Made by a program: the position numbers and the translations under genes. This document shows positions 8,987 through 52,943 of a stretch of DNA of 64,000 bases, piece by piece. Source of the stretch: an uncultured Acidobacteriota bacterium (GTDB lineage: Bacteria > Acidobacteriota > Vicinamibacteria > Fen-336); NCBI GenBank assembly GCA_964561785.1, contig CAZLRF010000009.1:41686-105685 (forward strand). The letters are read 5' to 3'. Under the pieces are notes generated by a model that made no database searches, was not told the DNA's origin, and saw only the letters and a list, made by a program, of their open reading frames with translations. Position 1 is the stretch's first letter. The number at the start of each line of letters is the position of its first letter.

Positions 8987-9776
8987 TGCTCGCGAAGCGG
9001 CTCATTCCCTGCCTCGACGTCGACCGCGGCCGCGTGGTGAAGGGCGTGCGCTTCGTGTCCCTGCGCGACGCGGGCGACCCCGTGGAGGCGGCGGTGCGCT
9101 ACGACCTCGAGGGCGCGGACGAGCTGGTCTTCCTCGACATCACCGCCTCCTCCGACGCGCGGCCGATCGTGCTCGACATGGTGCGCCGCGTGGCGGACGC
9201 GGTCTACCTGCCGTTCACCGTGGGCGGAGGCGTGCGCGCGGTGGAGGACGCCGAGGCGCTGCTGCGGGCCGGCGCGGACAAGGTGGCGGTCAACACCGCG
9301 GCGGTCGACGAGCCGGCGCGGCTCGAGGATCTCTCGCGCCGCTTCGGGTCGCAGGCGGTCGTCCTCGCGATCGACGCGCGCTCGACCGGGCGCGGCGGGT
9401 GGGAGGTGTTCGTGCACGGCGGACGCACGCCCACCGGCCGGGACGCCGTCGAGTGGGCGCGGGAGGGGACGGCGCGGGGCGCGGGCGAGATCCTGCTCAC
9501 CAGCATGGACCGGGACGGGACGAAGGACGGCTTCGACGTGGCGCTCGTCCGGGCAGTGGCCGACGCCGTGCGTGTGCCGGTCGTGGCCTCGGGCGGCTGC
9601 GGCAGCGTCGCCCACATGGCCGAGGCCTTCACGCAGGGGCGGGCGAGCGCGGCGCTCGCCGCCTCCGTCTTCCACTTCGGCGAGATCCGGATCCCCGAGG
9701 CGAAGAGGGAGCTGCTCGCCCTCGGCGTGCCGGTGCGGCCCCCGGCGGAGCCGCCAGCGGCGGCGGGAGGCCGGTG

Positions 9777-9777
<1 letters not shown>
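8986..9777 (+). CDS. hisF: imidazole glycerol phosphate synthase, cyclase subunit
   Basis: HisF motifs ([30 protein letters not shown]). Confidence 0.92.
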
Positions 9778-14197
<4,420 letters not shown>

Positions 14198-33763: not shown

Positions 33764-33793
33764 TTGACAGGCGCGCGCCCTCTCCACTATCGT
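33764..33793 (+). promoter_or_regulatory. candidate sigma70-type promoter of rho (-35 TTGACA 33764-33769, 18-nt spacer, -10 TATCGT 33788-33793)
   Basis: Consensus -35 box; the ORF track's apparent start at 33764 is this TTGACA read as a TTG codon. Confidence 0.4.
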
Positions 33794-33868
33794 TCGGCCA
33801 TCCGGTCCAGCGGAGCGGGCGTACCGCCTGCCACTCTCCATTCCGCCGTCTCCATCCAGGTAACCGAA

Positions 33869-35377
33869 ATGGCCACCGACGACCCCTCGTCCAACCCGCC
33901 GCCCGCCGCGGACGCGGAGCCGAAGGCCGCGAGTCCGGCCGACAGCGCCGCGCGCAGCGGCGCCCACCGCAACGGCGGACACCGTCGCGGGCGCGGCGGC
34001 CCGAAGGGCGAGCACTCCCCGCGCAAGCCGCGCCTGCCCCAGCGGGACGTCGAGGAGGACGAGCCGGTTCCGGACACGGTCGCCGGTGCCGAGGGGGAGG
34101 GGACGGAGGAGGAGGGCAACCGGCTCGACCTCGCCGTCCTCAAGGAGATGAGCATCCAGAAGCTCATCGAGGTGGCGAAGGAGCTGGAGATCCCCGGCGC
34201 GACCTCCATGAAGAAGCAGGAGCTCGTCTTCCAGATCCTGCGCGCCCAGGCGGAGAAGGAGGGCCTCATCTTCTCCGAGGGCGTCCTCGAGATCCTGCCC
34301 GACGGCTTCGGCTTCCTGCGCGCCCCCGAGTACTGCTACCTCCCCGGGCCGGACGACATCTACGTGTCCCCCTCGCAGATCCGCAAGTTCGACCTGCGCA
34401 CGGGCGACACGATCAGCGGCCAGATCCGGCCCCCGAAGGAGGACGAGCGTTACTTCGCCCTCATCAAGGTGGACGCGGTCAACTTCGAGCCGCCCGACCG
34501 CGCGAAGGAGAAGATCTTCTTCGACAACCTGACCCCTCTGTACCCGCAGGGGCGGATCAGGCTCGAGACGACGCCCGACCAGCTCACGACCCGGGTGATG
34601 GATCTGCTCTGCCCGCTCGGCAAGGGGCAGCGCGCCCTCATCGTGGCCGCCCCCCGCACGGGCAAGACCATGATCCTCCAGGCGATCGCCAACGCGGTCA
34701 CCACGAACCACCCGGAGATCGTCCTCATCGTGCTGCTCATCGACGAGCGGCCCGAGGAGGTGACCGACATGCAGCGCTCGGTCCACGGGGAGGTCATCTC
34801 CTCGACGTTCGACGAGCCGGCCGACCGGCACGTCCAGGTGGCGGAGATGGTCCTCGAGAAAGCCAAGCGCCTCGTCGAGCACAAGAAGGACGTGGTGATC
34901 CTGCTCGACTCGATCACCCGTCTCGCCCGGGCCTACAACACGATCGTCCCGCCCTCGGGCAAGGTCCTCTCGGGCGGCGTCGACTCGAACGCGCTCCAGC
35001 GGCCCAAGCGTTTCTTCGGGGCCGCCCGCAACGTGGAGGAGGGGGGCTCGCTCACGATCATCGCGACCGCGCTCGTCGAGACGGGGTCGAGGATGGACGA
35101 GGTCATCTTCGAGGAGTTCAAGGGCACCGGCAACGCCGAGATCGTCCTCGACCGCAAGCTCACCGACAAGCGGATCTTCCCGTCGCTCGACATCAACCGC
35201 TCGGGCACCCGCAAGGAGGAGCTGCTCGTCCCCGCCGCCGAGCTCAACCGGGCGTGGATCCTGCGCAAGGTCCTCTCCGCGCTCTCGCCGGTCGAGGCGA
35301 TGGAGCTGCTCCTCGAGCGGCTCTCGAAGAGCAAGAGCAACCGCGAGTTCCTCGAGAGCATGTCGGCCGGCGGGTAG
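33869..35377 (+). CDS. rho: transcription termination factor Rho (with charged low-complexity N-terminal insertion)
   Basis: Rho N-terminal domain ([18 protein letters not shown]), CSD-like RNA-binding domain, RecA-like ATPase (Walker [17 protein letters not shown]). Start placed at ATG 33869, downstream of the promoter. Confidence 0.9.
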
Positions 35378-35949: not shown

Positions 35950-35989
35950 TTCACGACCTACACGGGGACGCCCCGTAGAATGGCGGGGC

Positions 35990-36691
35990 ATGAGCACGCC
36001 GCTGCGTCTGCAGCCCTCGCCCGCCGTCAAGGAGAAGCGCCTCGCCTCGCTCCTCGCAGAGCGGGGCCTTGAGGCGGACGACCCCGCGCTCGCGGGGCTG
36101 GTCGAGGACGCCCAGCTCCTCGGGAGCCTCGAGCTCGCCGGCGTGCGCGCCTCGTGGGACGAGGTGCGGGCCTCGCGCGAGCCGGGCCGGGGGGCGGCCG
36201 AGGTCCTGGCCCTGCGGCGGGCGCGGGCGGCGGTCGCGAGGGACGCCCCGTTCGGCGTCGCCGCCCTGCGCGCGTGGCACGAGGCCATCGCGGGCCCCGT
36301 CGGCTACCGCACGGGCGAGCGCGAGCGGGAGGGGCCGCCGCCCGCGCCCGCCGAGTTCATCGAGAGCCGGCTCGCCACTCTCGAGGAGTGGCTGGAGATG
36401 GCCGGGTCGCGGGACCTGCGGCCCGAGCAGGCGGCCGCCGTGGCCCTCGCCCGCGTCGTCGAGATCCTGCCCTGGGACGACGCGAACGGCCGCGTCTCGC
36501 GCCTCGCCGCGTCCCACCTCATGGAGAGGGGCGGGATGCGCCCGCCGATCCTGGTCGCCGGCGACGCCCCGCGCCTGCGCGCGGCGCTCGAGTCGGCCTT
36601 CCAGCTCGAGACCGGGCCGCTCGTCGACCTCCTCGTCGAGGCCTCGGGCCGCGCCCTCGACGTGATGATCCAATCGCTCAGCGCACGCTGA
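35990..36691 (+). CDS. Fic/DOC (Fido)-like protein with degenerate active-site motif
   Basis: ILPWDDANGRVSR aligns with the Fic motif HPFx(D/E)GNGRxxR but carries H->L and G->A substitutions. Confidence 0.4.
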   Translation: MSTPLRLQPSPAVKEKRLASLLAERGLEADDPALAGLVEDAQLLGSLELAGVRASWDEVRASREPGRGAAEVLALRRARAAVARDAPFGVAALRAWHEAIAGPVGYRTGEREREGPPPAPAEFIESRLATLEEWLEMAGSRDLRPEQAAAVALARVVEILPWDDANGRVSRLAASHLMERGGMRPPILVAGDAPRLRAALESAFQLETGPLVDLLVEASGRALDVMIQSLSAR

Positions 36692-36721
36692 TCCGCTCCT
36701 GCTACGCTTGGTTCGTCCGCC

Positions 36722-38122
36722 ATGCACATCGACCTCCCCCCCGGTGTCGTGCGCCTCTTCGCCGACGTGCGCTCGGCCGGGGGCCGGCCGTTCGTGGTGG
36801 GCGGCGCCGTGCGCGACGCCCTCCTCGGCCTGCCGCTGAAGGACGTCGACGTCGAGGTGTTCGGCCTGCCGGCGCAGGGCCTCGAGCGGCTGCTCGGCGC
36901 GCACGGGCGGGTGGACGCGGTCGGGCAGGCGTTCCGCGTCTACAAGCTCTCGGGCGTCGAGGGGGTCCTTGGCGCGCTCGACGTCGCGCTTCCGCGGCGC
37001 GACTCGAAGGTCGGTCCCGGCCACCGGGGCATCGCCGTCCTCGGCGACCCCCAGCTGCCGATCGACGAGGCCGCCCGCCGCCGCGACTTCACGATGAACG
37101 CGATGCTCTTCGACCCCGCGACGGGCGAGCTGCACGACCCGTGGGGCGGGAGGCGCGACCTCGAGGCCCGCGTCCTGCGCGCCGTGGACCCGTCGACGTT
37201 CGGCGACGATCCGCTGCGCGCCCTGCGCGCCGTGCAATTCGCGGCCCGGTACGAGCTCGAGGTCGAGCCGGCCAGCGCCGCGCTGTGCGCCGCGATGCCG
37301 CTCGCCGAGCTGCCCCCCGAGCGGATCTTCGTCGAGATCGAGAAGCTGCTCCTGAAGGCGGAGAAGCCGTCGCGCGGCCTCGCCCTCCTGAGGGCCTGGG
37401 GCATGCTGCCGGTCGTCGCCCCGGAGCTCCTCCCCCTCGACGAGACGCCCCAGGACCCCGGCTGGCACCCCGAGGGCGACGTGTGGGTCCACACGCTGCA
37501 GGTCGTGGACGAGGCGGCGGCCCTCGCGAGGGACCTCGCCACCGACCGCCCACGGCACCTCGCCGTCATGCTGGGCGCCCTCTGCCACGACCTCGGCAAG
37601 CCCGCGACCACCCGCTTCGAGGACGGCCGCATCCGCTCGCGCGGGCACGAGGAGGCAGGGCTCGCGCCCACGCGCTCCCTCCTCGACCGGTGGGGCGTCC
37701 ACACGCTGCTCGGCTACGACGTGCGGGCCCAGGTGCTCGCCCTCGTCGCCCACCACCTCAAGCCCGGCCAGCTCTACGACGATCGCGAGAGGGTCGGCGA
37801 CGGGGCCATCCGCCGCCTCTCCCGCAAGTGCGAGCCCGACCTGCTCTACCGCGTGGCGAAGGCCGACTGCCTCGGGCGCCGGCCCGGCGCCTTCGCGCCG
37901 GTCGCGATGGAGTGGTTCCGCGCCCGCGTCGCCGAGCTCGACGCCTTCCGCCCCCCCGAGCCGCTGCTCAGGGGCCGCGACGTCCTCGCCCTCGGCGTCC
38001 CGCCGGGCCCGGAGGTCGGCCGGGTCGTCCGGGCCGTCTACGAGCGGCAGCTCGACGGGGCGGTCCGCACGGTCGACGAGGCGCGCGACGAGGCGCGCCG
38101 GCTCCTCGGCTACCGGCCGTAG
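36722..38122 (+). CDS. cca: CCA-adding tRNA nucleotidyltransferase (class II, with HD domain)
   Basis: PolyA_pol head (VVGGAVRDALLGLPLKDVDVEV, RRDFTMNAM); HD motif LCHDLGKP. Confidence 0.8.
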   Translation: MHIDLPPGVVRLFADVRSAGGRPFVVGGAVRDALLGLPLKDVDVEVFGLPAQGLERLLGAHGRVDAVGQAFRVYKLSGVEGVLGALDVALPRRDSKVGPGHRGIAVLGDPQLPIDEAARRRDFTMNAMLFDPATGELHDPWGGRRDLEARVLRAVDPSTFGDDPLRALRAVQFAARYELEVEPASAALCAAMPLAELPPERIFVEIEKLLLKAEKPSRGLALLRAWGMLPVVAPELLPLDETPQDPGWHPEGDVWVHTLQVVDEAAALARDLATDRPRHLAVMLGALCHDLGKPATTRFEDGRIRSRGHEEAGLAPTRSLLDRWGVHTLLGYDVRAQVLALVAHHLKPGQLYDDRERVGDGAIRRLSRKCEPDLLYRVAKADCLGRRPGAFAPVAMEWFRARVAELDAFRPPEPLLRGRDVLALGVPPGPEVGRVVRAVYERQLDGAVRTVDEARDEARRLLGYRP

Positions 38123-39642
38123 GTCGTCTCGCGGTCGAGGACCTCGAGGGTGTGCGCGTAGAGGTCGTCCACCTGCGCGGGGCTGTTCGCGATCGCGGTG
38201 AGCCCGAGCTTGCCGAACTCGGACAGCGCGCCGATGAGGTGGAAGAGGACCCCCGACTCCGTCCCGTGGCTGTAGTGCAGCTTGTTCACGGTGAGGATGT
38301 CGACGAGGTCCTCCGGGAGCAGCCCCCGGTACTGCTCGGAGAAGAGGTTGTCCGTCGCCTTGTAGTACTTGGCGTGGCCGCTCGGCGAGAGGAAGAGACC
38401 CGTCTCCGGGTCGAGGCTCCCGCCGGTGAGGAACTGCAGGGCGAGGTAGGGATGGGTCGTGCCTCCCATGCGCAGGTTGATCTCGAGCGCGGTCACCCGC
38501 CAGTGCTCGGCCGGGGCGTCGCGGTGCACGAGGAAGTCGATCCCGAGGCGGCTCACCACGCCGTGCGCGGCCAGCACCCTCCCGATCGCGAGCCCCGCCT
38601 CCTGGACCTGGAGCCGGTAGTCGTCGCGGGCGGGGAAGCGGCAGCCGAGGAACACCTGCCCGCTCGGCCCGCCGAGGATCTGGTCGTGGGTCGAGATCGC
38701 CTGGACGTCCCCGCGCGGGCTGATCCGCAGCTGCGCGCTCGGGGAGAGCTTCTCCCCGGCCTCCACGAACTCCTCCACGATCCCCCCCATCCTCGAGAGC
38801 TTGTCGAAGTACGTCTCCGCGGTCTCCGTCGCGACCGCGAACTCGACCTGCCGCAGCGCGTCGCGCAGGGCCTCGCGCGACGTGGACTCCGGGTAGCGGA
38901 ACAGGGCGTTGCCCTCCCCGGAGAAGCTCTCGTCGAGCTTGATCACCGCCCGCCGGATCCCGGGGCGCTTCGCCCGCAGCTCCTCGAGCGCCGTCTCGAC
39001 GTCGTGGGGCGTGTGCAGGTCCTCGAAGCCCTCGGGCAGGGCCACCCCCGCCTCCCGGAACACCTTGCGGCTGCCCGACTTGGTCCCGAGGTGGGCGAGG
39101 CGCGGGTCGCAGCCGTTCAGGGGCACGCCGAGCAGCACGGCGAGCTTGCGCTCGTGGGGGGTCGAGTTGAAGACGGTCAGGTAGGCCTTCGAGGGGTCCG
39201 CGATCCCGGCCCGGATCCGCTCGATGAGCCGGGGCCGCGCGAGGATCTTCTCGGTGAGCGAGCGCGGGGAGGCGTCGTCCGCGCACAGGAGCGTCAGGCG
39301 GGAGCGCGCGTGGCTCGCCGGGATCCCGGCCAGGAACTGGAGGTAGTACTCGAGGATGATCGGGTGGATCGGCTGCGAGGTGACGTACACCATCCGCGCC
39401 CGGGGGTTGCGCAGGCGGATGAGGAGGAAGAGCAGCCGCTCCTCGTAGAAGCTCGCCCCCGCGATCTTGCACAGCTCGCTCTGGTCGAGGGTGAGCGAGG
39501 GCACCACCACCGAGGTGTGCGGCTCCTCCTCCCGCATCGTGAGCGAGTCCCACACCGCGGCGAGGCGGGGCTTGAGCCGCTCGAACTCCGCGATCTCCTG
39601 CTCGGGGGTGAGGTCCCTCGGGAACGGGGGCTTCGGGATCAT
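38110..39642 (-). CDS. ATP-grasp superfamily ligase (pre-ATP-grasp + ATP-grasp; possibly PGM1-like peptide ligase family)
   Basis: 510 aa with central ATP-grasp-like region (RAVIKLDESFSGEGNALF, LEINLRMGGTTHP); assignment by overall pattern only. Confidence 0.4.
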   Translation of the reverse strand: MIPKPPFPRDLTPEQEIAEFERLKPRLAAVWDSLTMREEEPHTSVVVPSLTLDQSELCKIAGASFYEERLLFLLIRLRNPRARMVYVTSQPIHPIILEYYLQFLAGIPASHARSRLTLLCADDASPRSLTEKILARPRLIERIRAGIADPSKAYLTVFNSTPHERKLAVLLGVPLNGCDPRLAHLGTKSGSRKVFREAGVALPEGFEDLHTPHDVETALEELRAKRPGIRRAVIKLDESFSGEGNALFRYPESTSREALRDALRQVEFAVATETAETYFDKLSRMGGIVEEFVEAGEKLSPSAQLRISPRGDVQAISTHDQILGGPSGQVFLGCRFPARDDYRLQVQEAGLAIGRVLAAHGVVSRLGIDFLVHRDAPAEHWRVTALEINLRMGGTTHPYLALQFLTGGSLDPETGLFLSPSGHAKYYKATDNLFSEQYRGLLPEDLVDILTVNKLHYSHGTESGVLFHLIGALSEFGKLGLTAIANSPAQVDDLYAHTLEVLDRETTYGR

Positions 39643-39652
39643 CGCGCCCCCC

Positions 39653-40810
39653 TCAGAACACCTCGGCCCCTCGGCCGGCCGCCACGGGCTCCCCGAGCAC
39701 CGCGTGGACGACCCCGTCCTCGTGCAGGCCGCGGGAGCGGCCGAGCGCCTCCGCCCGTCGCCGCACCTGCCGGAAGAGGTGGAAGCGCAGCGGTCCGAGG
39801 AGCGTGAAGTCCGAGGTCAGGTGCAGCCGCTGGTCCACGTCCTCCTCGGGGAAGGAGCGGGTGAGGATCTCGAGCCGCTCCCGGTACCAGGCCTCGCTCA
39901 CCTCGCCGCGGTCGCGCTTCTGGTTGAGGATCATCACCTGGCGGAAGCGGTCCACGATCTCGGGGTGGTGGTTCGCCGCGAACACCCGCGGCATCACGCC
40001 GGAGCGGTCCCGCGCGAACTCGATCATCGTCACCGCGTCCCCCGGGGCGCCGCCCACGCCCAGCGTCTCGAAGCCGATCGGCACCGCCCACGCCGGACGC
40101 CCGCGGCGGGGGATCAGGTCGAACAGGCGGTTCTCCACGACCCGGAACCGGGCGCTCTCCCCGAGGAGCTCGGCGAAGCGGCGGAACCACGGGTGCTCGG
40201 CCGCCGGCCACGCGAGCACGTTCTCGAGGACGCCGGTGCACTTGCCCTTCTCGGGGCCCCGCAGGACGGGCTCGGCCGCTCCCGACCAGCGGCACAGGAC
40301 CCCGAACGTGTGGCACACCGCGAGCAGCGCCGCGTCCTCGTCCTCCCGGATGGCGTCGAACAGCCGGAACGCCGGCTCCTCCCAGGACGGGTCCTCCCGA
40401 ACGCCCTGGGCGAACGGGGCGACGCCGTCGTTCTGCCGCGGGTCGATGTGGCCCGGTCCCCCCGTGCCGACGTAGAGCGCGTAGCGCCCGCCCGGGGGGC
40501 CGGGGAGGACGCCCGAGCGGCGCACGTCGAACGAGAGCACGCGCACCCGCAGGCCCGCCTCCTCGAGCGCCCCGATCGACTCACAGCTCGCGTCCATGAC
40601 CGCGTGGACGAGCGAGTCGTGCCCGAGGTTGGGCCAGCCGTGGTTCATGTCGAGCACGGCCACGTCGATCGCCCGCGGGTCCTCCGCCGGCACGTCCTGC
40701 GGGCGCTCCACCCTCACGTACTCGAACGTGCCGCAGGGCGCGGTCGACGGGCAGTCGGTGACGCAGAACTGCCGGCCGTGGCGCTGCTTGAAGGCACACT
40801 CGAGGGGCAT
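39653..40810 (-). CDS. class I glutamine-amidotransferase-like protein with N-terminal Cys4 cluster
   Basis: Nucleophile-elbow-like LLAVCHTFGV and C-terminal NHHPEIV (HPE His/Glu motif); N-terminus MPLECAFKQRHGRQFCVTDCPSTAPCG with four Cys; 11 nt upstream of the ATP-grasp gene on the same strand. Confidence 0.4.
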   Translation of the reverse strand: MPLECAFKQRHGRQFCVTDCPSTAPCGTFEYVRVERPQDVPAEDPRAIDVAVLDMNHGWPNLGHDSLVHAVMDASCESIGALEEAGLRVRVLSFDVRRSGVLPGPPGGRYALYVGTGGPGHIDPRQNDGVAPFAQGVREDPSWEEPAFRLFDAIREDEDAALLAVCHTFGVLCRWSGAAEPVLRGPEKGKCTGVLENVLAWPAAEHPWFRRFAELLGESARFRVVENRLFDLIPRRGRPAWAVPIGFETLGVGGAPGDAVTMIEFARDRSGVMPRVFAANHHPEIVDRFRQVMILNQKRDRGEVSEAWYRERLEILTRSFPEEDVDQRLHLTSDFTLLGPLRFHLFRQVRRRAEALGRSRGLHEDGVVHAVLGEPVAAGRGAEVF

Positions 40811-40914
40811 GATCCGCAGAGTCTACCGGCCCCCCGGGGCCCCGTCCACCCGGGTCTCTTGCCACGACGGGGGGCGCGGAGGCAGACTCGCTCCCGGCAT
40901 CCCGGAGGTGCGGC

Positions 40915-41403
40915 ATGGGACTCGAGCTGAAGCTGGTCGCGATCGACAAGCCGGCCGACGCCAACCTCATCCTCGGCCAGTCGCACTTCATCAAGACCGT
41001 CGAGGACCTCTACGAGGCCCTCGTGGCGTCCGTGCCGGGGATCCAGTTCGGCCTCGCGTTCTGCGAGGCGTCGGGGCACTGCCTCGTCCGGGCGGAGGGG
41101 ACCGACGAGGCGATGAAGGCGGTGGCGGTCGCCGCGGCGCAGTCGATCGGCGCCGGCCACAGCTTCGTGATCGTCCTCCAGAACGCCTTTCCCATCAACG
41201 TGCTCAGCGCGGTGAAGGCCTGCCCCGAGGTGTGCCGGATCTACTGCGCCACCGCGAACCCGCTGCAGGTGGTCGTGGCCGAGACCGAGCAGGGCCGCGG
41301 CATCCTCGGCGTCGTCGACGGCTCGTCGCCGAAGGGCGTCGAGGACGCGGCGGGGGTCGCGTGGAGGCAGGAGCTGCTGCAGAAGTTCGGCTACAAGCGC
41401 TGA
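40915..41403 (+). CDS. adenosine-specific-kinase-family (DUF355-like) protein
   Basis: N-terminal LKLVAIDKPADANLILGQSHFIKTVEDLYEAL resembles this small family; low certainty. Confidence 0.3.
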   Translation: MGLELKLVAIDKPADANLILGQSHFIKTVEDLYEALVASVPGIQFGLAFCEASGHCLVRAEGTDEAMKAVAVAAAQSIGAGHSFVIVLQNAFPINVLSAVKACPEVCRIYCATANPLQVVVAETEQGRGILGVVDGSSPKGVEDAAGVAWRQELLQKFGYKR

Positions 41404-41489
41404 GCGGCCGGATGCAGCGGACGGGCGCACGGAAAGGCCGAAGCGCCCGCCGCTGATCCGGCCGCCGGGGGAGACCGAGGAGACGACCC

Positions 41490-41969
41490 ATGGGACTGAG
41501 CCTCACCTCGCCGGCCTTCGCACCGGGCGGGGAGATCCCCTCCCGGTTCACCTGCGAGGGCCGCGACCTCTCGCCCGCCCTCGAGTGGACGGGCGTTCCC
41601 GAGACGGCGAGAAGCCTCGTGCTGATCGTGGACGATCCCGACGCCCCGGACCCCGAGGCCCCGAAGATGACCTGGGTCCACTGGGTCCTCTACAACCTGC
41701 CGCCGTCACTCCGGGGCCTGCCCGAGGGCGTCGCCGCGAAGGACCTGCCGCCGGGGACGAGGCAGGGGACGAACGACTGGAAGCGCACCGGCTACGGCGG
41801 GCCCTGCCCGCCGATCGGCCGCCACCGCTACGTCCACAAGCTCTACGCTCTCGACGTCGTTCTCCCCGACCTCGGCGCGGCGACCAAGACCCAGGTCGAG
41901 GCGGCCATGACGGGCCACGTGGTCGCGCAGGCGGAGCTCGTCGGGACGTACGAGAAGACCGGGCGCTGA
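41490..41969 (+). CDS. YbhB/YbcL-family PEBP (Raf kinase inhibitor-like) protein
   Basis: PEBP signature DPDAPDPEAPKMTWVHWVLYN and GYGGPCPPIGRHRYVHKLYAL. Confidence 0.8.
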   Translation: MGLSLTSPAFAPGGEIPSRFTCEGRDLSPALEWTGVPETARSLVLIVDDPDAPDPEAPKMTWVHWVLYNLPPSLRGLPEGVAAKDLPPGTRQGTNDWKRTGYGGPCPPIGRHRYVHKLYALDVVLPDLGAATKTQVEAAMTGHVVAQAELVGTYEKTGR

Positions 41970-51131: not shown

Positions 51132-52121
51132 TCAGGCGGCGGCGCGGCGGCGGTAGGCCCCGGGGGGGGTCCCGAAACGGCGGCGGAAGGCCTTGCTGAA
51201 GGCGGCCTCCGACTCGTAGCCGACGCTCGCGGCGACCTCGCCGAGAGAGAGCGCCCCGTCCTGCAGGAGTCCGGCCGCCGTCTCGAGCCGCCAGCGCGAG
51301 ACGTACGCGAGGGGAGGCTCGCCCACGAGGGCCGCGAAGCGGGCGGCGAAACGCGAGCGGGACATCCCCACCGCCTCGGCCAGCGAGGCGTTCGTCCAGC
51401 CCCGCTCCGGCGCGCGGTGGACGAGGGCGAGGGCAGCGCCGACCTGGCGGTCGCGCAGCGCCCCCATCCAGCCGCCCTGTCCCTCGGGCAGCGACTCGAT
51501 CCACGCCCGGAGCACCTGGACGAAGAGGACGTCGGTGAGGCGCGAGACGATCGTCTCCGTCCCCGGCCGCGCCTCGCGGGTCTCCCAGGCCAGGAAGCGC
51601 AGGGTCGCTTCCAGCCACTCCGCGGCCGGCGTCTCGGCCGGCCGCAGGTGGATGAGCGGAGGCAGCAGCTCGACGAGCGGGTGCGCCTGTCTCCGCTCGA
51701 AGCGGAACGAGCCGCAGACGAGCCGTGTCTCCGGCCCCTCGCCCCCGCCGCGCATGACGAGGCAGCCGCCCTCGCTCCCATGCCGGCCGGCCATCTCCGA
51801 CAGCGGCCGCGCCGTCGTGCCGAGCGAGTCGGTGAGGGTGTGGCCGGTCCCGTGGGGCACGACCACGAGGTCGCCGCCCGCGAGGGCGACCGGCTCTTCT
51901 CCCTCGATCCGCAGCCAGGCGCCGCCGCGCTCGATCACGTGGAAGTGCGCGTAGTCCGAGCGCTTCAAGGCCATGCCCCACGGTGCCTTGAGCTCGGACC
52001 GACAGAAGACCCGGCTGCGCAGTCGCACCGCGTCCATGACCGTCGTGAGGACGTCGCTCGCGTCGGTTCGCCAGGCCGCCGGTATGGGACGATCGGACAA
52101 GAAAGCGGGATTCTGCGACAT
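51132..52121 (-). CDS. AraC-family transcriptional regulator with cupin-type sensor domain
   Basis: N-terminal cupin (LVVVPHGTGHTL); C-terminal double HTH (SLAEAVGMSRSRFAARF...SVGYESEAAFSKAFRRRFGTPP). Confidence 0.85.
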   Translation of the reverse strand: MSQNPAFLSDRPIPAAWRTDASDVLTTVMDAVRLRSRVFCRSELKAPWGMALKRSDYAHFHVIERGGAWLRIEGEEPVALAGGDLVVVPHGTGHTLTDSLGTTARPLSEMAGRHGSEGGCLVMRGGGEGPETRLVCGSFRFERRQAHPLVELLPPLIHLRPAETPAAEWLEATLRFLAWETREARPGTETIVSRLTDVLFVQVLRAWIESLPEGQGGWMGALRDRQVGAALALVHRAPERGWTNASLAEAVGMSRSRFAARFAALVGEPPLAYVSRWRLETAAGLLQDGALSLGEVAASVGYESEAAFSKAFRRRFGTPPGAYRRRAAA

Positions 52122-52196
52122 CGGTCGTCCTGAGCGCTCGGACTATAACACAAGAAACGAGCCCGGCGCCGAGAGGCGAAGAACGGAGACGAGACG

Positions 52197-52943
52197 ATGA
52201 GCGCAAACGCGAACGTGACGAACCCGGACCGGAAGAAGAGAGTCCTCCTGATCGCGGCCAACCCGGCCACCTCGCCGACCACGGGCTGGCCGATCGGCTT
52301 CTGGTGGGCGGAGCTGACGCACCCCTACTGGGCCTTCACCGAGGCCGGCTACGAGGTCGAGATCCGCAGCCCGAAGGGCGGTGCGCTCCAGGCCGACGGC
52401 TACAGCGACCCCGAGGACGCGAGCGGCTACTCGGCCCACGACATCCTGTCGCTCGGGTTCAAGAAGTCGAAGGCGCACGCCGCCCTCCTCGAGGACACGA
52501 GGTCGATCGAGGGCGTGACGGCCGCGGACTACGACGCGCTCTTCGTGACCGGCGGGCAGTCGCCGATGGTCACGTTCCGCGGCGACGCGAAGCTGCAGAA
52601 GCTGGTGGCGGAGTTCTACGAGGCGGGGAAGATCGTGGCCCTCGTCTGCCACGGCACCTGCCTGCTGCTCGAGACGACGCTGTCGGACGGCGAGCTCCTC
52701 GTCGACGGGAAGACGTGGACCGGCTTCGCGAACAGCGAGGAGCAGTTCGCGGACAGCTTCGTGGGCAAGCGCATCCAGCCCTTCTGGATCGAGGACGAGG
52801 CGCGGAAGATCCCGGGCACGAACTTCGTCGTCGACCAGCGCTTCCGCGAGTTCGCGGTGCGTGACGGACGCCTCGTGACGGGGCAGCAGCAGTACTCGGG
52901 GGCGGCCGCGGCCCGTCTCGTCATCGAGGCGCTGGGGCGATGA
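52197..52943 (+). CDS. DJ-1/PfpI-family (type 1 glutamine amidotransferase-like) protein
   Basis: Nucleophile elbow IVALVCHGT; family length. Confidence 0.75.
   Translation: MSANANVTNPDRKKRVLLIAANPATSPTTGWPIGFWWAELTHPYWAFTEAGYEVEIRSPKGGALQADGYSDPEDASGYSAHDILSLGFKKSKAHAALLEDTRSIEGVTAADYDALFVTGGQSPMVTFRGDAKLQKLVAEFYEAGKIVALVCHGTCLLLETTLSDGELLVDGKTWTGFANSEEQFADSFVGKRIQPFWIEDEARKIPGTNFVVDQRFREFAVRDGRLVTGQQQYSGAAAARLVIEALGR

Follow-up and report, generated by a model that had tools for sequence, protein, structure and literature searches.

What is the function of two adjoining genes in an uncultured Acidobacteriota bacterium (Vicinamibacteria, Fen-336), one for a 385-amino-acid (aa) protein with a predicted class I glutamine amidotransferase (GATase1) fold and one for a 510-aa ATP-grasp ligase? 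We focused on this pair within a window of 64,000 nucleotides (nt) (contig CAZLRF010000009.1 of assembly GCA_964561785.1, positions 41,686 to 105,685), for which a sequence-only reading was already available. The two genes form an operon whose members are kept side by side in most related genomes. The function that we favor, tentatively and as the likeliest of the readings considered while still short of probable, is that of a ligase/thiol-amidase module acting on a small amide-linked metabolite, which is probably a gamma-glutamyl compound. We refer to the 385-aa protein as amidase-like.

The window has a G+C content of ∼75%, resulting in long spurious open reading frames (ORFs) in every frame. 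Two stop-free ORFs that overlap the real genes in other frames (35951-39553, minus strand, 1200 aa; 36154-39807, plus strand, 1217 aa) are artefacts of this composition, and it is the third-position GC that tells real genes from spurious ones. Given that this value reaches 0.98 for the 385-aa gene and 0.99 for the 510-aa gene, both are true reading frames, which confirms the two minus-strand genes of the sequence-only reading. The gap between them, counted there as 11 nt, is a spacer of 10 nt (Table 1), a spacing that would imply cotranscription and translational coupling. No terminator-like or promoter-like sites were found between or around the genes (37900-41100), and we therefore consider them to be one operon. 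Upstream of the pair, no σ70 consensus was found in the 104-bp divergent intergenic region, and an Rfam scan of the same region gave no match at an E value of ≤1. The sole Rfam match within 37900-41600 lies inside the amidase-like gene (E value of 0.29, far under the gathering score), and the search for riboswitches, promoters and terminators around the pair thus returned nothing usable.

As a single sequence, the amidase-like protein has no match in Pfam, NCBIfam, PADLOC or the PDB sequences (phmmer), its family profile has none in the PDB, and a Pfam scan of 21 family members at an E value of ≤10 was also empty. Its close homologues form 2421 clusters at 90% identity, the best 120 of which are 72 to 95% identical to it, 385 to 386 aa long and all labelled "hypothetical"; those with a taxon name belong to Vicinamibacteria. 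When 1.84 billion representative proteins were searched exhaustively with HMMER, just 253 clusters (50% identity) came up at an E value of ≤1e-3, and many of these were fragments or calls with frameshifts, showing that the family is compact. Since no sequence library recognizes the protein, structure prediction was needed to find its fold. For that, we used an alignment of clean, diverse members (38 to 83% identity), in which the blocks GTGGPGH (residues 115 to 121), xVCHTFG (with C166) and NHHPE (with H282 and E284) are conserved, together with many arginines (R90, R97, R109, R174, R184, R228, R267 and R275). The resulting AlphaFold model is confident (predicted local distance difference test [pLDDT] of 85, predicted template modeling score of 0.88), with the exception of residues 1 to 27 and the C-terminal tail, and shows an alpha/beta/alpha fold with a nucleophile elbow between the central strand and a helix. 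This model assigns to the protein a GATase1 fold and a Cys-His-Glu signature that sequence models do not detect.

The putative nucleophile, Cys166, is flanked in the model by strand 161-165 and helix 167-176 and is invariant save in one degenerate member, P0228. The NHHPEI motif comes after the last core strand (274-279), with H282 invariant and E284 nearly so, and all three residues are retained in 75 of the 77 members examined. The Cys-His-Glu core that had been proposed from the strings AVCHTFG and NHHPEI, both of which are present in the translation, is thereby borne out by fold and conservation. The same arrangement is known from the Arabidopsis gamma-glutamyl peptidase GGP1 (MEROPS C26, PDB 9K7I/9K7J/9K7L), whose catalytic residues are C100, H192 and E194. 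By comparison with the established GGPG motif and with the description of S68 and H70 in GGP1, GTGGPGH is the likely equivalent of the GATase oxyanion-hole loop. The similarity to GGP1 stops at the level of fold: sequence identity is 12 to 15%, there is no hidden Markov model match, and the window protein has ∼140 extra residues, comprising an N-terminal cysteine arm and a helical C-terminal extension.

Some further features of the active site stand on their own. In P0228, a Gly occupies the nucleophile position and a Gln replaces the triad Glu, while P0126 has an Asp in place of this Glu; in both cases a pseudo-enzyme or a sequencing artefact is possible. Seven residues past the putative nucleophile, the same helix carries another cysteine that is nearly invariant, Cys173 (window positions 40292-40315 for Cys166 and Cys173). 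Given that GGP1 is inactivated by a disulfide involving its nucleophile, a redox switch via Cys166 and Cys173 is conceivable by analogy.

The partner was easier to place. The 510-aa protein matches both ATP-grasp_IQCH (PF24923, E value of 8.9e-21) and PGM1_C (PF18105, E value of 6.4e-14) in Pfam, and its only match among PDB sequences is BesA (8yi6, E value of 7e-47, residues 62 to 496). The motif residues K235, E290/E291 and E387/N389 of an ATP-grasp enzyme are present. Foldseek placed BesA, PGM1 (3wvq/3wvr) and a Streptomyces ATP-grasp peptide ligase (8ynd) on top, although the AlphaFold2 model submitted was poor (pLDDT of 60, from a shallow alignment with 83 to 93% identity) and served only to confirm this neighborhood. 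The closest 120 homologues are all 510 aa long and carry the NCBI name "peptide ligase PGM1-related protein." Judged from its domains, the protein is thus a PGM1/BesA-type ATP-grasp ligase, as the sequence-only reading had suggested. BesA, an L-propargylglycine--L-glutamate ligase that links an amino acid to the gamma-carboxylate of glutamate, is its closest characterized relative. It belongs to the same ATP-grasp subfamily as BesA and PGM1, aligns with them over its full length and has the PGM1 C-terminal domain in common with them, but it is conserved across Acidobacteriota in the manner of a housekeeping gene and is not part of a sporadic biosynthetic cluster. No genes of the Bes or pheganomycin pathways were found near the pair. 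The best NCBIfam model, BesA NF042917, scores 169.7 bits against a cutoff of 750, which excludes a BesA equivalog; with the amidase-like protein lacking any library match, the earlier impression that neither protein corresponds to a characterized enzyme stands. Nor did we find what would have spoken for primary metabolism, namely, confident homology of both proteins to such enzymes combined with unrelated neighbors elsewhere. The 510-aa protein also has no match among the PADLOC models, and a reading of the pair as an anti-phage defense system was rejected, since neither protein is recognized by them.

The sequence-only reading had called for a search of the genome context of the pair. When one genome per GTDB species was scanned, 330 species turned out to encode a relative, and the best 80 are almost all Acidobacteriota metagenome-assembled genomes (MAGs) (Vicinamibacteria, Thermoanaerobaculia and Holophagales). 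In 71 of 82 related loci, a gene for a PGM1-like ligase shares the strand, mostly directly downstream and with a median gap of 22 nt. Given that the homologues are adjacent in so many loci while all other neighbors vary, the pairing is more than chance. Identity across the loci is higher for the ligase (64 to 91%) than for the amidase-like protein (56 to 83%).

The arrangement in the window is the most common one, with 56 of 91 loci consisting of the amidase-like gene followed by the PGM1-like gene and 11 of the amidase-like gene alone. Other loci are richer. A YbdK/GCS2 carboxylate-amine ligase, whose score exceeds the NCBIfam NF010039 cutoff, occurs near the amidase-like gene in 20 of the 91 loci, and in 11 loci it lies directly upstream on the same strand (median offset of −13 nt). 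Circularly permuted ATP-grasp type 2 proteins, a short ATP-grasp-like protein of ∼320 aa and a class III aminotransferase are also recurrent; the order GCS2, amidase-like, PGM1-like, aminotransferase was found in four loci, and several further architectures contain extra ligases. In L074 and L075, for example, genes for GCS2, the short ATP-grasp-like protein, the circularly permuted ATP-grasp protein, the amidase-like protein and the PGM1-like ligase make up a full cassette. The order of these additional genes is variable, and the strand is always shared. Since the amidase-like gene of some relatives sits among up to four ligases and a class III aminotransferase, the pair represents a modular pathway in its minimal form. 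The 64-kb window itself encodes none of the extra components, GCS2 and the circularly permuted ATP-grasp protein included.

Two variants of the cassette deserve separate mention. In some Acidobacteriota (L014:10896-12248 and L037:5662-7014), the class III aminotransferase gene overlaps the stop codon of the PGM1-like ligase gene. In three Thermoanaerobaculia loci (L023 to L025, ∼9200-10340), a gene for a YncE-like beta-propeller of ∼345 aa is located between the amidotransferase-like and ATP-grasp genes.

A second clade of the family, with proteins of ∼335 aa that lack the N-terminal cysteine arm, is found in Eremiobacterota. Here, the amidase-like gene is part of a conserved four-gene operon with genes for a short ATP-grasp-like protein, GCS2 and a 404-aa protein, in which 8 nt are shared by the GCS2 and amidase-like genes. 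In the loci L083, L090 and L091, the start and stop codons overlap, and the products measure 314 to 321 aa (short ATP-grasp-like), ∼370 aa (YbdK/GCS2) and 335 to 340 aa (amidotransferase-like). The 404-aa protein has no Pfam match and is weakly similar to circularly permuted ATP-grasp proteins (hhalign probability of 65%, E value of 6e-5). Genes of the arginase family, PF00756 esterases and glutaredoxin-like proteins recur within a few kilobases of the operon, which hints at thiol or polyamine chemistry.

Several lines of evidence led us to favor the ligase/thiol-amidase reading. The nearest structures of the amidase-like protein are stand-alone gamma-glutamyl peptidases, and both ligase partners with characterized relatives (BesA and GCS2) make gamma-glutamyl amides. 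A ligase, of the glutamine synthetase fold or another, together with a GATase1-fold hydrolase, sometimes with a class III aminotransferase, is an established design for gamma-glutamylation, and GCS2-sized ligases beside "glutamine amidotransferase-like thiol peptidases" have been noted before (PMC2588565). Finally, the amidase-like gene swaps ligase partners between lineages. According to this proposal, the 510-aa enzyme would use ATP to phosphorylate a carboxylate, which it would then couple to an amine. Its 385-aa partner would act in the cytoplasm as a cysteine amidohydrolase of the class I GATase fold, in which Cys166 would attack an amide carbonyl to form a thioester, with His282 and Glu284 acting as the base, and water would resolve the thioester and set free the acyl (glutamyl) group, in the manner of GGP1, PuuD/SpuA and EgtC. 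Together, the pair would add and later remove an acyl or gamma-glutamyl handle, or control the level of a conjugate. The analysis itself establishes the structure of the genes, the fold, the conservation of the motifs and the linkage of the genes; we infer the hydrolytic direction, the gamma-glutamyl specificity, the metal binding and the substrate.

The earlier comparison of the pair with PuuA/PuuD points in the same direction. In the polyamine catabolic systems PuuA/PuuD and SpuB(PauA)/SpuA(PauD)/SpuC, an ATP-dependent gamma-glutamyl ligase likewise works with a GATase1-fold gamma-glutamyl hydrolase, and the class III aminotransferase of some related loci and the adjacent ligase of the glutamine synthetase fold (GCS2) add to the resemblance. 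In contrast to these systems, the ligase of the window is an ATP-grasp enzyme and not of the glutamine synthetase type, the sequence family of the hydrolase is another one, and the pair has no linked oxidase, dehydrogenase or transporter. A PuuA/PuuD-like ligase/hydrolase function is a proposal, favored by the structural neighbors and by the recurrent YbdK/GCS2 and class III aminotransferase genes.

One observation weighs against the ligase/thiol-amidase reading. GGP1 binds the glutamyl alpha-carboxylate with Q104, four residues past its nucleophile, whereas the equivalent position here is a glycine (C166-H-T-F-G170), and this missing Gln counts against a glutamyl S1 pocket. The tight gene order and the existence of a minimal two-gene form without any intermediate enzyme favor another reading, in which the pair is a two-subunit glutamine-dependent amidoligase with the 385-aa protein as its glutaminase subunit. 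In this main rival, Cys166 would form a glutamyl thioester and liberate ammonia, which would react with an acyl phosphate made by the ATP-grasp enzyme to give a carboxamide product, following the logic of CarA/CarB, or that of GatD/MurT with another ligase fold. Those systems also have a GATase1-fold gene directly upstream of or beside the gene of an ATP-dependent ligase, and CarA and GatD are among the structural neighbors of the 385-aa model. Nevertheless, we regard such an amidoligase as rather unlikely. Most class I glutaminases keep a Gln at the fourth position after the nucleophile, and the lack of this canonical glutamine-binding residue is as unfavorable here as it is for a glutamyl hydrolase. 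The protein is also ∼150 residues longer than typical glutaminase subunits and has the helical C-terminal extension. Moreover, glutaminase subunits normally keep to one synthase family, whereas the PGM1-like partner is adjacent in 71 of the 91 loci and is missing from all Eremiobacterota loci and from at least eight Acidobacteriota loci with enough flanking sequence, where YbdK/GCS2 or other ligases are encoded instead. This is not the constant synthase partner of a heteromeric amidotransferase.

Two further possibilities differ in the kind of substrate, and we consider both to be less likely than the ligase/thiol-amidase and glutaminase readings. ATP-grasp ligases include the processive enzymes RimK and CphA, and cyanophycinase, whose fold is GATase1-like, is encoded beside its synthetase. 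By the same logic, the ATP-grasp enzyme could add residues repeatedly to a storage or protective poly-amino acid or a repeated isopeptide, which the GATase1-fold enzyme would trim. The many conserved arginines of the amidase-like family would suit a polyanionic substrate. A cyanophycin-type pair, though, combines an S51 Ser-His-Glu peptidase with an ATP-grasp/Mur-ligase synthetase, which is not what the two genes encode, and we judge a synthetase/depolymerase pair to be very improbable.

Slimmer still is the chance that the pair modifies peptides or proteins, with the PGM1-like ligase attaching an amino acid and the thiol peptidase processing or removing this tag. PGM1 of pheganomycin biosynthesis does act on ribosomally made peptides (PMC8939145), and the strong conservation of the ATP-grasp protein across Acidobacteriota lineages, with its constant length, could reflect a macromolecular substrate. 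However, the small substrate-peptide gene that the sequence-only reading had suggested looking for was not found next to the pair, and no small ORF is conserved there. The only candidate is an ORF of 25 aa (40823-40900, minus strand), which is also the only ORF in the intergenic region upstream of the amidase-like gene; given that the corresponding space in the relative L011 measures just 58 nt, this ORF cannot be conserved. In addition, no other enzymes for ribosomally synthesized and posttranslationally modified peptides or for natural products are linked to the pair, whose neighbors are housekeeping genes.

The N terminus of the amidase-like protein had drawn attention as a possible Cys4 metal site. 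The four cysteines are present with the spacing described (C5-x10-C16-x3-C20-x5-C26), but their conservation across 77 members differs from that of a linear Cys4 motif. C5 and C16 are always Cys where the extension is present, while C20 and C26 are complementary, with at least one of them being Cys and C26 alone often replaced by Gly, Glu or another residue. A fifth position, residue 76, is Cys in nearly all extension-bearing sequences and is not Cys in the extension-less members P0122, P0127, P0129, P0130, P0134 and P0136. The patterns at positions 5/16/20/26/76 include CCCCC (15 members), CCRCC (12), CCHCC (8) and CCCxC (∼20). This covariation supports a four-ligand site made of C5, C16, either C20 or C26, and C76. 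The arm and Cys76 probably bind a structural or redox-sensitive metal, in a region that the model predicts with low confidence (pLDDT of 55 to 64). Since the whole arm is absent from the Eremiobacterota clade, we regard the site as an accessory element.

TABLE 1 Positions of the amidase-like and ligase genes, of their predicted functional elements and of the related Eremiobacterota operons (window coordinates, except for the last row)
Feature	Position	Strand	Basis
GATase1-fold protein gene, 385 aa, ATG start, Cys-His-Glu signature	39653..40810	-	ORF and predicted fold
PGM1/BesA-type ATP-grasp carboxylate-amine ligase gene, 510 aa, ATG start	38110..39642	-	Pfam, NCBIfam, PDB, Foldseek
Spacer GGGGGGCGCG, 10 nt, context TGA-GGGGGGCGCG-ATG, G run resembling a ribosome-binding site	39643..39652	-	Sequence reading
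Divergent intergenic region 5' of the pair, 104 bp, presumed promoter region	40811..40914	.	Position
Cys-rich N-terminal extension, probable metal-binding arm	40733..40798	-	Translation and conservation
Cys76 in core helix alpha-1, probable fourth ligand in the N-terminal Cys site	40583..40585	-	Conservation
GTGGPGH, residues 115-121, likely counterpart of the class I GATase GGPG oxyanion-hole loop	40448..40468	-	Conserved across diverse members
AVCHTFG, residues 164-170, nucleophile elbow with putative catalytic Cys166	40301..40321	-	Model and conservation
NHHPEI, residues 280-285, putative triad residues His282 and Glu284	39956..39973	-	Model and conservation
Central ATP-grasp nucleotide-binding/catalytic region, residues 190-411	38410..39075	-	Motifs aligned with BesA; confident part of the AlphaFold2 model
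ATP-grasp motifs KLDESFSGEGN (235), IVEEF (288), GIDFLV (367), LEINLR (386)	within 38410..39075	-	
PGM1 C-terminal domain, residues 445-496	38155..38310	-	Pfam PF18105, 6.4e-14
Four-gene operon, Eremiobacterota metagenome and MAG contigs	L083:5937-10256, L090:4931-9230, L091:4938-9253		

The genes around the pair follow a different pattern. Homologues of the PF04008 "adenosine-specific kinase" and of the PEBP/YbhB family (40915-41969, plus strand) diverge from it, and the 3' end of the ATP-grasp gene overlaps the convergent gene of a CCA-adding/HD-domain tRNA nucleotidyltransferase (36722-38122) by 13 nt (38110-38122). PF04008 is syntenic with the pair in 7 of the 82 loci and PEBP in 12, in both cases in the closest Vicinamibacteria only. 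A functional link of the pair to the PF04008, PEBP, CCA-adding enzyme, Fic and Rho genes was rejected, as they are syntenic only in these closest relatives (7 to 25 of 82 loci). The Rho termination factor (33764-35377, plus strand) has an N-terminal extension of ∼100 residues, rich in Arg, Gly, Pro and Ala, before its conserved core. Elsewhere in the window (51132-52943), an AraC/cupin regulator is encoded beside a DJ-1/PfpI-family protein, which is also a member of the GATase1-like superfamily and appears to be unrelated to the pair.

A system of the same kind has been described by Iyer, Burroughs and Aravind (2008; PMC2588565), who reported neighborhoods of a GCS2-sized ligase with a thiol peptidase resembling glutamine amidotransferases and predicted that they make peptide-like metabolites. 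Their systems come from proteobacteria and firmicutes and use another ligase family, whereas those found here are from Acidobacteriota and Eremiobacterota; the PGM1-type ATP-grasp partner and the multiligase cassette are not in that work. In the literature and libraries that we searched, no description was found of the amidase-like family, its cysteine arm, the PGM1-type pairing or the multiligase cassette. Systems that combine an ATP-dependent amide ligase with a thiol enzyme resembling GATases are already known, and the family, arm, pairing and cassette would be what is new here.

The family of the 385-aa protein has no Pfam or NCBIfam model in the copies searched and is publicly labelled "hypothetical," yet at least 330 species-level genomes encode a member. 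It is strongly conserved, typically lies beside genes of ATP-dependent amide ligases, and is known from Acidobacteriota and Eremiobacterota, two phyla that are dominant and poorly cultured in soil. If the pair simply adds and removes a gamma-glutamyl group, it would be an ordinary variation on the Puu/Spu theme. Bolder outcomes, which we think improbable even when taken jointly, are that the amidase-like protein and up to four ligases make, in Acidobacteriota and Eremiobacterota only, a new gamma-glutamyl-based cofactor, low-molecular-weight thiol or polyamine conjugate, or that the pair is the first ATP-grasp amidoligase outside carbamoyl-phosphate synthetase to be fed ammonia by a dedicated glutaminase subunit of a new family. 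Once the reaction is identified, a conserved metabolic module of these two phyla would have a function, and the class I GATase/C26 peptidase superfamily would gain a new sequence family; a small peptide-like metabolite or a type of amidotransferase not seen before might also come to light.

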